Source: a virus (Duplodnaviria > Caudoviricetes). From it: 64,000 nucleotides of DNA. The notes under the pieces are model-generated. The model ran no database searches. It was not told where the DNA came from and saw only the letters and a list, made by a program, of their open reading frames with translations. The DNA lies in the IMG/VR virus record IMGVR_UViG_3300032218_003260; one strand, given 5' to 3'. Shown here in pieces: positions 48,879-57,122 of the stretch (the stretch's first letter is position 1; each line of letters begins with the position of its first letter). Both the position numbers and the translations under genes were made by a program.

Positions 48879-48910
48879 TAGATATACCCGGTTTTGGCCG
48901 TTTATTTAGC
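48879..48910 (-). promoter_or_regulatory. Bipartite promoter-like motif CTAAATA-N17-ATAT, copy 1
   Basis: Minus strand GCTAAATAAACGGCCAAAACCGGGTATATCTA; five copies with exactly 17-nt spacing. Confidence 0.7.
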
Positions 48911-48912
48911 TA

Positions 48913-51900
48913 TCAGCGGTTAGCGGTATACGCGACGCCCGCACCACCCGCTGCAAGCCCGCCGACCCCGGCTGCGCCATAGCCCACGCGCTTAGCCATT
49001 GGGACCATGGGCGATGCCACGGTCATGCCGTAGCGAATCGCGGGGCCGTACACCATCTTGCTCAGCGTCGGATTCACGCCGGATTCCTGCGGCTTGTACA
49101 CCATGCTGTGATCGGCTGCGTTCATACCTTGTAGCCGCCGGGGCGATAACTGAAACTCAACAGGTGTGCCTTTGAGCGTCCCTTTGATGTTATGCCCATG
49201 ATAGCCGGGGCGCATTAACATCTTGGACCCAGTGATTTGCACACCAGCGTCTGTCAGTTGTTTTGTTAACGAATCAACAGCAGGTTGACCGTAGCCTTGG
49301 CTGGACGAAAGCCGAAAGCCAAGTAAGTCGTTGGTGACTTGATCTGTTCCGTGGCCTGCGATGCTTCCGGGTGTCTTCACGCGGCCGGCATATGTCTGGA
49401 AACCCTGCGGCTTGAACGACGACAAGAACTCGTTGCCAGCCTGCAGGGCTTGATTGCGCTCGGCGTGCAGGATGCCTTCGGGGACAGAATTACCCAGCGT
49501 CGTCATGGGCCCGCGGAACGACTGGCGCGCAGCTGTCATGCCTTTCGACAGCCCTTTGAAACCCAGCCTGCGTCCAAGCCCCATAGCGCCAGAAACTAAC
49601 CCAGCCGACTTTTCTTTCGCGTCGGGCCAGCCGGGTTTGAGCTGGTAGTCATACACAGGCTCGCCGGCCAACAGCTGCTGCTTGGCCAATGTGGGCACAG
49701 CGCCAGCGATCGAACCGTCTGGTTGGGGCTGTAACCGATAGCGTTCTTTCAGCCACTGTTTATGATATTCAGGCGTTTCTTTGGCCAGCCGATCAAACTG
49801 CTGCGTGGCGATAAACGTGTTGATATCATCCGGCGTCATCGTAATCGGGTGCAGCTTTTCGCGCTGTTTTTTCAGGGGCGTGATGCTGTAATGCACACCC
49901 TCTTGTAGCGGCGTTTTATTTTCGCGCTCTGCTAGGTGTTTGCGCAGCCGGTCAAGCACGGCCTGTTGTTTTTTTTTATTACCGGGTAACACAGCGCGGG
50001 CTTCACCAGTGCGGGCGTTGTTATATGCAATCCCGGGATGGTCTAACTCGTCCAAAATAGTATGCAAAGACTTGCGCAGGTTTACGCCTTGTACGTCGCC
50101 GTCAAAGCGATACACGCCGGCTTTTTTATCTGTCACTTGTCTGGCCGCGGCGTCAGCTTTAAACCCGCCCAGCGTCTTCTTGCCGTAGTGCGCGAGCATG
50201 GGCGCAGAAGACGCCAGCATGTATGTGGGCAGGCCAATAAACGCCGATCGGCCGCCCTTGAGCTTCATCTGGCGCATGAGCTTGGCGCCCCGACGAGACG
50301 CATCAAACTCAGACGCTAACATCGGCACTGCGCCGACTGTACCCGCAATCGCCGAGTTCCGAGAGTTAGTCTCGTTGTTTGAAAGCAGCGCGCCGGCCGT
50401 ACCTAATCCCAGCGCCGGCCGACCGATTTGATTACCGCGCATGAGCCATTTGCCGCCCATGTGGTGCCCGATCTCGTGCGCTAACACGCCGGGGTTACTC
50501 ATGCGCGGACTATGGCCAATCGTGGGTTTTGATATCCCCATACCCGGATTTGCCGGTGTATAAAACGCGGGGGTGTTGCGCACACTATCAGCCGCTGAAC
50601 GGCGCATTCTGTACTTGATGTTATTCATGAGATCGCCAAGCCAGTTGCCCGTTGTTTTAGGTGCTATCTTTGGGTCAATCTTGCTGGCAACGTTCAAACT
50701 ATCTGTCACATCTACGCCCTGCCCCTTTGCGTAGTCACTGAGTTGTTGCCACGCTTGCGATGTTTCAAGCGTCGGCACAGCGTTCATTTCTGGGCGCGCA
50801 ACACGGTTCATGTACGCAGTTAATGGCACGCCAATCGCAGCATTTGTCGCCGGCATGCCACCGAGGTACCAGCCCATCGAGTGCCCTAAACCGGGCTTAG
50901 CGGGTTCTTTTTTTTTTGCTTCGATTGCGCTTTTTTTACCAAAACGCGCAGCAAAATCTGCGGGCGATACCGGGCGAATCGAAGGCGGCGCGGCTGTTGT
51001 TGCTGGGGCGGCCGGCGGTGTGGCCGGCGCTGCAGTGGGCGATACAGGGCGCTGCATAACTGGCGAGGGAGCCGGACGAGCTGCCGGGGCTGGGCTTGGT
51101 CGCGGAACAGCAGTTGGAGCCGGCTGCGCAACTGGCGTGGGTCTAGCTTGCTGCGAAACAGGAGCGGGAACCGGACGCGCTGCCGGCCGAGGTGCTGACG
51201 TTACCGCTTGCCCCGCTCCGGTGGCGCGTTGCGTGTCTATTCGCTGGCGCATCAGCTGATAATTTTGCAATTTTTGCCATTCTGGTACGCCGTCGTTCAC
51301 GTTTACAACGTTTTTCATGTAACTACTGAGGTCGGCGCTCGTGGGCCGTGCAGGCATTTTGAACGGTGTGCGCGCAGCTGCCGCAATTGGTTTTTTCGCA
51401 ACTCCGCTGACCGCTTTACCAGCCATGCGACCAATCGAGCTGAGTAAACCGGCCATCTTCTCCCCGCCTACAGAATTGGCTGTCCCAAACGCGGCGTTCC
51501 CTGTGATATCACCCGTCGAAGACAACGCGCCGTATGAATTAATAGGATTGGCGTTGGGAGACGAACCGCCGCCAACAGGGGGTAGTTGGCCAGACGGAGC
51601 AGGCGAGCCCGTGTTTGCTGGCTGGGCGGCGGGAGCCTGTGGTTGGCCTTGTGGCGCCTGTGCCTGCATACCCATAGGGAGCGGCGTACCCATCGCCGGC
51701 ATGGCATATCGCTTAATTCCGGCGTTTGCAGGCATCCGGGCAGCCTCTCGGGCCTCCATTTCAGCCCTTTCATTCTCCATCGCCTGCATAATGGGCTGCG
51801 ACAAAACAGCAGAAAGCTTCGCCATTAACGTGTTTACACCATAATTTGGCTTTGTTTCCGAGTTACATCTTTCGCCCTTGGTTTTAACGACCTTGGGTGG

Positions 51901-52725
51901 ATTTTCGCCTGCAACTGTGGGCTTATCACTGGCCGGCTGCTCGATATAGACCTCTTTGGTGTCCGCTTTCTTGGATAATTTCCTGTAAATATCGAGGGCT
52001 ACAGAGTTTACAGCCGATTGTTTGTAAGTTGTCATGGGAGGTTTATTTGCAAAGGCTGCGTTAATGGGGGATTGGCTTGCGGTACCGGTGACATGGGGCA
52101 AAAACCCGACAACTCCACCAACACCAAGGTTCATGACACCGTTTGCGACTCCGATACCCTTCTCTAATGTCTCGGTAGGGAGTTCGCCATGTTGTTTTAC
52201 ATAGCGCTGCGTCTGATTCTGAAGCTGCTGGACGTCTTTATACGCTCTGGTGGCTTTATTGACGGTACTTTTATTGACGTTGGCGAAAGTCTTGGGGAGT
52301 TTTGAGTTTACAAGCTTATCGGAGAGTTCTAGTTGGCGCGCAGAGAGGACAGCAGCGTTGGGGAGGCGCTTGAGCAGTCTGTATGAGCGCATGGGGTTAA
52401 AAAACAGCACGCTTTCCCTTGCGGCATTCTGAAACAACTGCTGCAACATCGGCGAGCCAACACGTTTTGATAGCATTCCGGCAGCTGCAAGGCCGGCGGT
52501 TGTGCCCAGAGTGCTTAATCCAGCGGCAGCGGCAGTGTCTCGGGCTGCGGCACCGGGAGAAAAGTCGGCTTGCTTGGCCTCTGTGTCAGGTTCTTTGTCT
52601 TTTTTACTGTCAGACGCGTACATGGGGAGTTTCTTTTTGATCGGATACTCGTGCGCCCAGCGTTTGGCAAGCTCTGGATGCTCGGCCCACAGAAACCTAC
52701 GCTGCTTTTCTGACTTAAACGGCAT
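48913..52725 (-). CDS. Polyvalent polyprotein: Zn peptidase, acylphosphatase-like and RelA/SpoT-like synthetase modules
   Basis: 1270 aa; MPFKSEKQRR N-module; HEIGH...EFDAS (aa750-810); DVQGVNLR (aa877-884); GRVKT/DLLGFR/GYHG/VEFQ/DHSMVYK (aa1114-1211); K-x-A sites between modules. Confidence 0.8.
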   Translation of the reverse strand: MPFKSEKQRRFLWAEHPELAKRWAHEYPIKKKLPMYASDSKKDKEPDTEAKQADFSPGAAARDTAAAAGLSTLGTTAGLAAAGMLSKRVGSPMLQQLFQNAARESVLFFNPMRSYRLLKRLPNAAVLSARQLELSDKLVNSKLPKTFANVNKSTVNKATRAYKDVQQLQNQTQRYVKQHGELPTETLEKGIGVANGVMNLGVGGVVGFLPHVTGTASQSPINAAFANKPPMTTYKQSAVNSVALDIYRKLSKKADTKEVYIEQPASDKPTVAGENPPKVVKTKGERCNSETKPNYGVNTLMAKLSAVLSQPIMQAMENERAEMEAREAARMPANAGIKRYAMPAMGTPLPMGMQAQAPQGQPQAPAAQPANTGSPAPSGQLPPVGGGSSPNANPINSYGALSSTGDITGNAAFGTANSVGGEKMAGLLSSIGRMAGKAVSGVAKKPIAAAARTPFKMPARPTSADLSSYMKNVVNVNDGVPEWQKLQNYQLMRQRIDTQRATGAGQAVTSAPRPAARPVPAPVSQQARPTPVAQPAPTAVPRPSPAPAARPAPSPVMQRPVSPTAAPATPPAAPATTAAPPSIRPVSPADFAARFGKKSAIEAKKKEPAKPGLGHSMGWYLGGMPATNAAIGVPLTAYMNRVARPEMNAVPTLETSQAWQQLSDYAKGQGVDVTDSLNVASKIDPKIAPKTTGNWLGDLMNNIKYRMRRSAADSVRNTPAFYTPANPGMGISKPTIGHSPRMSNPGVLAHEIGHHMGGKWLMRGNQIGRPALGLGTAGALLSNNETNSRNSAIAGTVGAVPMLASEFDASRRGAKLMRQMKLKGGRSAFIGLPTYMLASSAPMLAHYGKKTLGGFKADAAARQVTDKKAGVYRFDGDVQGVNLRKSLHTILDELDHPGIAYNNARTGEARAVLPGNKKKQQAVLDRLRKHLAERENKTPLQEGVHYSITPLKKQREKLHPITMTPDDINTFIATQQFDRLAKETPEYHKQWLKERYRLQPQPDGSIAGAVPTLAKQQLLAGEPVYDYQLKPGWPDAKEKSAGLVSGAMGLGRRLGFKGLSKGMTAARQSFRGPMTTLGNSVPEGILHAERNQALQAGNEFLSSFKPQGFQTYAGRVKTPGSIAGHGTDQVTNDLLGFRLSSSQGYGQPAVDSLTKQLTDAGVQITGSKMLMRPGYHGHNIKGTLKGTPVEFQLSPRRLQGMNAADHSMVYKPQESGVNPTLSKMVYGPAIRYGMTVASPMVPMAKRVGYGAAGVGGLAAGGAGVAYTANR

Positions 52726-56673: not shown

Positions 56674-56678
56674 AAGAT

Positions 56679-56909
56679 TCAGGTGACAGCCTCAAAGTCG
56701 GCGTCGATCACCGTGTAGCCGTCGAAGTCGTCGTTCAGGATCGCTGCTTCGGCCGGGATGCACTCGCAGACGCCCAGTTCAAGGCCGCAGTGCAGGCAGT
56801 GCTCGATGTCCGTGTCAGGCGGCGCAGTGGCCACAGCAAACACGAACAGCATGTCCCGGTAGTCGTCCACATTGACCTTCACCGCCGGGTTGTTGCGCAG
56901 ACCAGCCAT
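56679..56909 (-). CDS. Small Cys/His-containing acidic protein (cassette gene)
   Basis: AAGGAGG RBS then MAGLRNN; HCLHC...CEC. Confidence 0.6.
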   Translation of the reverse strand: MAGLRNNPAVKVNVDDYRDMLFVFAVATAPPDTDIEHCLHCGLELGVCECIPAEAAILNDDFDGYTVIDADFEAVT

Positions 56910-57091
56910 AATCTCGTCCTCCTTGAAGAGAAATAAAACAACCGCCGTCTCGTGGCGGTACACGCTAATGGTCTCTCGCCATTAGACGGCCCCACCTATC
57001 ACCGGGCAGGGGTACGGCGAGGAAGTGCTATAGCTTCATGCGTAAGGCCAGTGCAATACACACTGCCGCGGCAAGAGATATAGGTCCTCAA

Positions 57092-57122
57092 TAGATATGC
57101 CGTGTTTTTGGCAGATATTTAG
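57092..57122 (-). promoter_or_regulatory. Bipartite promoter-like motif, copy 5
   Basis: CTAAATATCTGCCAAAAACACGGCATATCTA; spacer contains TGCC/GGCA arms. Confidence 0.7.

Follow-up and report, generated by a model that had tools for sequence, protein, structure and literature searches.

What kind of signal is the bipartite element CTAAATA-N17-ATAT, and which enzyme reads it? The element recurs in a stretch of 64,000 nucleotides (nt) from the IMG/VR virus record IMGVR_UViG_3300032218_003260 (Duplodnaviria; Caudoviricetes), an uncultured lake phage of about 200 kb. This whole stretch, called the window below, has about 55% G+C and carries nearly all of its genes on the minus strand. A pattern search finds five exact copies, all on the minus strand, at positions 48882-48909, 54363-54390, 55937-55964, 56319-56346 and 57095-57122; they are designated P1 to P5 in this order. 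A preliminary description of the sequence had recognized these five copies and their invariant spacing, with the start coordinates 3 nt too low and the end coordinate correct. It had proposed that they are early promoters read by the RNA polymerase of the phage itself, possibly with the assistance of hairpins in the spacers. The analysis presented here leads to a different mode of recognition. The five sites are probably early promoters peculiar to this phage lineage, of the type used by the sigma70 family and read by a phage-encoded sigma factor, with the phage polymerase as its probable partner. Thus the part of the proposal that concerns phage-specific promoters and a transcription machinery of the phage itself is supported, by inference, while the structural part is not.

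The element is not expected by chance. In 100 shuffles preserving the dinucleotide composition it had 0 matches, giving an expected number of 0.00 as compared with the five copies found. The sequence ATAT is present at the N17 distance for five of the six minus-strand CTAAATA of the window, the sixth (52965) being antisense to a gene, and the block on the -10 side, GKYATATNNANTG, occurs with zero mismatches at the five sites of the window only. The two halves of the motif are therefore obligately linked.

It is important to consider the genes that follow. Each copy lies upstream of a small minus-strand gene or operon, as had been described, and the start codons, each with a strong Shine-Dalgarno sequence, are found 80, 99, 75, 68 and 186 nt after the ATAT of P1 to P5, respectively. 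The genes served are small open reading frames (ORFs) without known function and not virion genes. Promoter P1 (48876-48911, positions -37 to -2, AG-CTAAATA-N17-ATAT-CTAGTG) lies at the end of a gene of 1270 amino acids (aa), the TAG stop codon of which falls within GATAGCTAAATA; its 80-nt leader leads to a 138-aa gene with its ATG at 48802. Promoter P2 (54357-54392) is located immediately 3' of the stop codon of a 380/406-aa gene resembling the Ntn-hydrolases; its leader of 99 nt precedes a 219-aa gene (ATG at 54264). Promoter P3 (55931-55966) starts 19 nt past the terminator tail at 55976-55983, and its 75-nt leader is followed by an operon of two genes of 109 and 380 aa. Promoter P4 (56313-56348) overlaps the 3' end of a 44-aa ORF, and here a 68-nt leader with a long nested hairpin precedes a 74-aa gene (ATG at 56251). 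Promoter P5 (57089-57124) lies 18 nt past the terminator tail at 57133-57140 and has the longest leader, a structured one of 186 nt, before a 76-aa gene (ATG at 56909).

Two of the neighboring genes may be described further. The second gene of the P3 operon (54394-55536, minus strand) resembles the Ntn-hydrolase acyltransferases and acid amidases (Pfam AAT, 1e-07; NAAA-beta, 7.5e-07) and is unusual for this region of small ORFs. The ORF that overlaps P4 (56339-56473, minus strand) encodes a small acidic protein, has an A/T-rich stretch with a perfect TATAAT upstream of it, and carries a copy of the terminator-tail motif discussed below, TTAGATATC, 25 nt before CTAAATA.

No near-identical phage genome was found for the window in INPHARED. 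A search of IMG/VR with the motif gave many contigs with a length of about 200 kb and an identity to the window of 68-89%, and the genome-wide scan suggested in the preliminary description was carried out on five nearly complete relatives of about 200 kb, G001 to G005, G004 being the most distant. All five genomes contain exactly six exact copies each, all on the gene (coding) strand and mostly within 10 kb. The reversed pattern, used as a control, has 0 matches in the five relatives. When one mismatch is allowed, about three extra CTAAATT variants per relative genome are found on the same strand; these are dispersed, have the same inner features and also stand before small ORFs.

The consensus was derived from 50 distinct sites, and the positions reported are those left free by the search. 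In the numbering used here YATATY is taken as -12 to -7, with A-11, T-10 and A-9 fixed by the search. The most conserved positions are G-14 and Y-12 (both 50 of 50), A-21 and T-3 (both 48), G-2 (45), A-5 (41) and C-17 (39). Position -13 is G or T in 49 sites, -12 is C or T in all 50, and -7 is C in 18. The residues A-37 and G-36 are kept in about two thirds of the sites. The half of the spacer far from the -10 block (-28 to -24) varies freely, and the conserved promoter-proximal positions are C-23, A-21, W-20, W-19, C-17 and C-16. The whole signal thus spans about 37 bp and can be written as AG-CTAAATW (-37 to -29), N5, C-A-A-W-W-n-C-C-s-G-K-Y-ATAT (-11 to -8) and Y-T-A-n-T-G (-7 to -2). The more distant contig L070 departs from this in two of six sites, which carry C at -14.

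The arrangement matches a promoter of the sigma70 family. CTAAAT corresponds to the -35 hexamer and YATATY to the -10 hexamer, the spacer is 17 bp, and this spacing is constant in the five sites of the window and in the 50 distinct sites. The invariant G occupies -14, the extended -10 position. The -35 block is CTAAAT and not TTGACA, and a scan with the sigma70 consensus does not pick the five sites. The earlier remark that the element is not a sigma70 consensus is correct as to the letters, while it is misleading as to the architecture, which is exactly that of the sigma70 family in the sigma28 register. The distance from C-35 to A-11 is 24 nt, the same as in the open complex of Pseudomonas aeruginosa sigma28 on fliC, in which the elements are (-36)TCTAAAG(-30) and (-15)GCCGATAA(-8) (PMC12784957). 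The corresponding elements of the window family are (-36)GCTAAAT(-30) and (-15)sGKYATAT(-8), and five of the seven letters of the -35 element are equal in the same register.

This similarity raises the question of whether the readers of the sites could be an alternative sigma of the host, of the FliA/sigma28 type, and the host core polymerase, the phage having borrowed a promoter of the flagellar class. The identical register, the nearly identical -35 element and the ATA at -11 to -9 agree with such a borrowing. However, the -10 specificity of sigma28 is absent: positions -14 to -12 are G-K-Y rather than C-C-G, with C-14 in none of the 50 sites and G-12 likewise in none. The phage lineage also has its own sigma factor with a conserved region 4. 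Reading by a host sigma is for these reasons quite unlikely, and since the sigma28 specificity positions are not retained, the sites appear to work like the sigma28 class without being members of it.

The block CTAAATA alone has another precedent. It is recorded as a variant of the late promoter in some T4-like and ViI-like phages (PMC1524935). It could accordingly represent a T4-type late promoter, that is, an Aeh1/ViI-type variant of TATAAATA at -13 to -6, used by a gp55-like reader with the transcription start inside the spacer. The conservation of C-23 and A-21, about 6-8 nt after the box, would suit such a start. The gene context is opposed to it: no minus-strand CTAAATA occurs in the first 48 kb (1-48 kb), before the structural, RNA-polymerase and other co-directional genes, and the genes downstream of the five sites are small ORFs rather than virion genes. 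The ATAT at a fixed distance, G-14, T-3 and G-2 also have no place in that model. The sigma of this lineage has regions 3 and 4, and gp55 differs from it in these regions. The late-promoter assignment was rejected for two reasons, the lack of any copy in front of the RNA-polymerase or other genes of 1-48 kb and the obligatory second block; its probability is extremely low.

The spacers deserve separate consideration. Inverted arms are indeed present in four spacers of the window (CGG/CCG, CCCG/CGGG, ACGCG/CGCGT and TGCC/GGCA), as first described, while the fifth spacer, that of P4, has none. It had been suggested that these arms keep their pairing and that the phage polymerase is possibly aided by structure. 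On this model the spacer would extrude a DNA hairpin, like the early promoters of phage N4; pairing above chance frequency was the test posed beforehand. To provide a null distribution, each spacer column was shuffled among the 26 distinct 28-mers of the window and the five relatives, which keeps the position-specific composition. The mean longest stem is 2.69, as compared with 2.56 in the shuffles (p = 0.22), and the share of stems of at least 4 is 0.115 as compared with 0.099 (p = 0.51). The mean DNA minimum free energy (MFE) is slightly lower than in the shuffles, -1.09 versus -0.67 kcal/mol, with a p-value of 0.015 for which orthologous sites were counted although they are not independent. 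This value and the arms of 3-5 bp around an A/T-rich center in four of the five spacers of the window are the points in favor of a hairpin. On the other hand, 14 of the 26 distinct spacers fold to 0 kcal/mol.

The orthologous sites give a consistent picture. Inverted arms are missing from P4 and from all of its orthologues, in which the left half of the spacer is variable (AGCTGC, ACATGC, ACCCAT, ACCTGC, CCCAGC) and the right half, TATTTCCGGTC, is fixed, with no compensatory change. None of the six sites of G004 has a usable stem, and the motif is nonetheless kept there. The composition of the spacer runs from G/C-rich to A/T-rich and back to G/C-rich, and such arms therefore arise by themselves. 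The promoter hairpin of N4 has a stem of 5-7 bp and a loop of 3 nt, while the stems found here are of 3-5 bp with loops of 5-8 nt. In addition, no giant single-subunit polymerase of the N4 type is seen in the window, the largest ORFs of which encode 1467 and 1270 aa; a search of three relatives with PF00940, the T7-type polymerase family, gave no match, and the controls of that search were also silent. The spacer hairpins are no more than chance. Stems at the chance level, one-sided variation at P4 and stemless sites in G004 mean that structure-assisted recognition of the N4 type is not supported, and we regard it as very unlikely.

The candidate reader and its enzyme can be described from the genes of this lineage. 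The window encodes a fusion of beta with the N-terminal part of beta' (beta-beta'N; 1467 aa, 14851-19254) that contains the catalytic motif ADFDGD, and a chain corresponding to the C-terminal part (beta'C; 626 aa, 11991-13871). Together they form a two-chain multisubunit RNA polymerase, and a single beta-beta'N gene is present in each relative. Among cultured phages, the Salmonella phage Arash is the nearest relative, with 32% identity in the beta chain. Mass spectrometry of Arash virions has detected beta (gp206), beta' (gp216) and the sigma factor gp10 (PMC10585845).

One sigma70-family gene, encoding 267-284 aa, is found in each of the five relatives. The proteins match Pfam Sigma70_r3 with 40 bits (cut-off 25.3) and r4 with 21-24 bits, align to RpoD/SigA chains over regions 2-4 and match PHROG 351, 'RNA polymerase sigma factor'; they reach no subgroup cut-off of NCBIfam. 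Since Sigma70_r2 (PF04542) has no match in the relatives, region 2 is assigned solely from the RpoD alignments and from the model of the complex described below. The helix of region 4.2 (PGAVSQRAAKIQ) is invariant across the relatives while the overall identity of the sigma proteins drops to 64%, and this invariance parallels that of the promoter motif. Gp10 is the only match of these proteins in Arash (E = 1e-11). The neighbors of the sigma gene have no detectable similarity to the gp9-gp14 region of Arash.

The sigma protein was modeled with residues 1020-1467 of the beta-beta'N chain of the window. The score of this complex is 0.63, and the best of three controls reached 0.00; the mark applied is reached by 58 of 80 solved complexes and by two of 110 mismatched pairs. 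At least 47% of the contacts are common to the runs, and the predicted local distance difference test (pLDDT) of the partner is at least 62. In the model, residues 58-98 of sigma are placed on the beta' coiled-coil 1168-1232. The contact of sigma region 2 with the clamp helices of beta' is a textbook solved pair, so that passing the mark may reflect memory of solved holoenzymes and is a matter of likeness, not of binding.

These observations allow us to propose how the sites may function. Region 4 of the phage-encoded sigma would read AGCTAAAT, and regions 3 and 2 would read G-14 and YATAT, respectively. Transcription would start at or just past the conserved TG, and the RNA would open with a stable 5' hairpin. 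The reader would be the single sigma70-family protein of the relatives, for which gp10 is the best match in Arash, and its most likely partner is the two-chain multisubunit RNA polymerase of the phage. As both polymerase and sigma are present in the Arash virion, this promoter class would be the first to fire and would serve early genes. Small variable genes are bracketed as cassettes by these promoters, to which a conserved terminator (hairpin-T7-AGCTATCAG) is often fused.

Several points weigh against this proposal. The sigma gene was seen in the relatives and lies outside the window; from synteny with G001 it is predicted about 18 kb before the window start, and Pfam scans of 38 ORFs of the window found no sigma factor. 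Packaging in the virion is extrapolated from Arash, and the identity to its sigma is only about 28% over 135 residues. CTAAATA-N17-ATAT is absent from Arash, even at one mismatch, and a crude search for gapped pairs of A/T-rich words, which recovered the motif in the window, detected nothing recurrent in 78 kb of Arash. Promoter function, the reading enzyme, the start point and the early timing are inferences. About nine sites per 200 kb are too few to serve a whole genome, which implies other promoter classes and perhaps other specificity factors, and the single sigma may not necessarily be tied to this class. The sigma could also associate with the core enzyme of the host and not with the phage polymerase. 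A sigma70-like sequence, TTGACG-16-TAGAAT, with 10 of 12 letters, is located at 57590-57617 (minus strand) and ends 6 nt before position 57584; the host RNA polymerase may therefore also act in this region. Finally, the conserved part of the spacer (-23 to -16) and an imperfect 32-bp dyad, CTAAATA...TATYTAG, are atypical of recognition by sigma only.

The dyad is best discussed together with the terminators of the region. Five of them, all on the minus strand, end with a run of seven or eight T followed by AGCTATCAG, and four of the five have stems of -23.6 to about -28 kcal/mol. The terminator at 57129-57177 has a 14-bp stem (-26.8 kcal/mol), T8 and the tail AGCTATCAG; that at 56624-56673 (-23.6 kcal/mol, T8, tail AGCTATTTA) has no CTAAATA promoter after it; that at 55972-56022 (about -28 kcal/mol, T7, tail AGCTATCAA) stands directly upstream of P3; and that at 48322-48386 (-27.9 kcal/mol, T7, tail AGCTATCAGCG) closes the P1 unit. 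The fifth is a weak A/T-rich stem at 53268-53300 with the tail TTTAGCTATCAGCG, which converges with the plus-strand gene 52943-53272. The tails, TTAGCTAT(CAG), follow the T-runs at 48326-48333, 53272-53279, 55976-55983, 56628-56635 and 57133-57140.

Read on the opposite strand, the tail AGCTATCAG gives exactly the extended -35 region CTGATAGCT, and TTAGCTAT likewise gives CTGATAGCTAA. The sequence CTGATAGCT stands before AAATA in the promoters that directly follow a gene. The tail is confined to the same region in all five relatives and is found 17-19 nt before a promoter at P3 and P5 here, for three of five tails in G001 and for three of four in G004. In a more distant contig the tail is TTTAGATATCA and precedes CTAAATA by 3-8 nt.

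This inverted relationship makes it necessary to consider that the element might serve chiefly, or in addition, as an operator. In that case the imperfect dyad CTAAATA-N14-TATYTAG, together with the inverted AGCTAAA in the terminator tails, would be the target of a dimeric regulator of the phage, for example in early shut-off. The half-sites of the dyad are 21 bp apart with the center at -19.5. In all five sites the reverse strand fits the pattern at two mismatches with an offset of 4 nt, and the consensus of the free positions -7 to -4, Y-T-A-G/T, mirrors -32 to -35. CTGATAGCTAAA in reverse complement gives exactly the tail TTTAGCTATCAG, which is restricted to the same region in all relatives and stands 17-19 nt before many promoters. 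However, the dyad was spotted post hoc, both of its arms are A/T-rich promoter blocks, and the inner 14 bp are asymmetric, C-23 facing C-16 and G-25 facing G-14. A symmetric site alone would also leave unexplained the strict orientation along the gene strand and the conserved T-3 and G-2. An operator that overlaps the promoter deserves to be kept in mind, although it is on balance unlikely, and the sigma-dependent promoter remains the preferred interpretation.

The sequence downstream of the promoters is structured. Over the 50 nt that follow the conserved TG, the sequence folds better than its shuffles (mean z = -1.58, with 68% of 50 sites below -1), as compared with a mean z of -0.16 for a control stretch 170 nt further downstream. 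This fits with stem-loops at the 5' termini of the transcripts. The 5' leaders of the window (48802-48881, 54265-54362, 55863-55936, 56252-56318 and 56910-57094, all minus strand) are structured; several have G/U-rich loops such as GTGTTGT, and the hairpins begin a few nt from the conserved TG. In the P5 leader (56909-57094) a terminator-like hairpin is found at 56941-56959 (ACCGCC...GGCGGT, then TGTTTTATTT) just before the ribosome site, and this leader is possibly an attenuator or another cis-regulatory leader. No Rfam family was detected in 48000-58200, including the P5 leader, at E <= 1.

These considerations lead to a broader proposal, which is offered tentatively and which we hold to be possible rather than probable. 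A clade of freshwater phages of about 200 kb may inject a complete holoenzyme, consisting of a minimal two-chain multisubunit polymerase and a true sigma70-family factor, and use about nine promoters of the sigma28 register to begin the infection. The inverted copies of the -35 region in the terminator tails might provide a second docking site for sigma region 4 or for a regulator, coupling termination to re-initiation or to shut-off. If this is true, the motif would give phage multisubunit polymerases that work with a real sigma their first promoter consensus. To our knowledge, no promoter has been proposed for the Arash-like lineage, in spite of the polymerase and sigma in the virion. The phage multisubunit RNA polymerases of phiKZ and AR9 have been described as lacking sigma homologues (PMC7824862, PMC13282480). 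As reviews deny such homologues, a sigma-dependent promoter class for an enzyme of this kind would be new. The motif offers an information-rich set of templates, each about 37 bp long, with five in the window and about nine in each relative genome. With it one could test whether a phage polymerase uses a real sigma, which positions sigma reads and how early transcription is bounded by the matching terminators. The analysis also corrects an attractive analogy with the hairpins of N4 that is not supported, and it points out where an abundant group of lake phages carries its variable early-gene cassettes.

Other features of the window may be listed briefly. A transfer-messenger RNA (tmRNA) is located at 60780-61126 (minus strand; Rfam, 121.8 bits), and four minus-strand transfer RNAs (Asn, Leu, Glu and Val) at 27975-28048, 61633-61714, 62273-62347 and 63664-63737. 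The gene at 29416-30450 (minus strand) encodes a 344-aa protein with a full-length match to the Volactin actin-like family (Pfam PF25216, E = 2e-62). The exact 15-nt repeat CCAAACTCCGCCAGC, present at 40638-40652 and 41168-41182 (minus strand) in neighboring intergenic gaps, was considered as a second promoter class and rejected; it is a local repeat of two copies, and the relatives have none or one.

It is instructive to compare these promoters with known systems. The PeSLs of T4-type phages are composite cassettes of a terminator and an early promoter that mediate modular shuffling (PMC2839356, PMC4122927). Here also a stem-loop terminator is fused to a conserved promoter of early type and repeated between small variable ORFs, and the content of genes and cassettes differs among close relatives. 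Homology with G001, in a block of 2.1 kb with 87% identity, runs out within the -35 block of P3 at 55958, and G001 has the P3 cassette at another place. Position 55958, the one breakpoint examined, is thus a recombination breakpoint exactly on the motif, as at the PeSLs of T4. In contrast, the promoters of PeSLs are early promoters for host sigma70, while those described here have their own consensus, and the terminators here carry the conserved tail that is an inverted copy of the -35 region.

The promoters of the N4 virion RNA polymerase (PMC4496689) are similar in being few, early and clustered, with a polymerase that is probably injected. They differ from the present sites, where there is no conserved hairpin, no giant single-subunit polymerase is seen and the sequence blocks have sigma-type spacing. 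The early promoters of phiKZ and AR9 are single short boxes adjoining the start. They resemble the present sites in having an ATAT-containing core close to the start and in being A/T-rich, conserved and specific to the phage, and the present sites would likewise be read by a multisubunit enzyme delivered by the virion at the onset of infection (PMC5312081, PMC7598289, PMC13282480). However, the enzymes of phiKZ and AR9 are described without a sigma homologue, whereas a true sigma70-family gene is present in this lineage together with a bipartite signal that includes a -35 block.

The sigma28/FliA promoters are comparable in several respects. They consist of two blocks and share the register of the present sites, CTAAA occupying -35 to -31 and ATA -11 to -9; in both cases a G/C-rich segment just 5' of the -10 block acts as an extended -10, and a sigma that has regions 2, 3 and 4 exists. 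The differences are the G-K-Y at -14 to -12, the -10 block ending in ATAT followed by the conserved YTAnTG, and the conserved spacer block C-A-A-W-W. The sigma itself is phage-encoded, falls below every NCBIfam subgroup cut-off and probably serves the polymerase of the phage.

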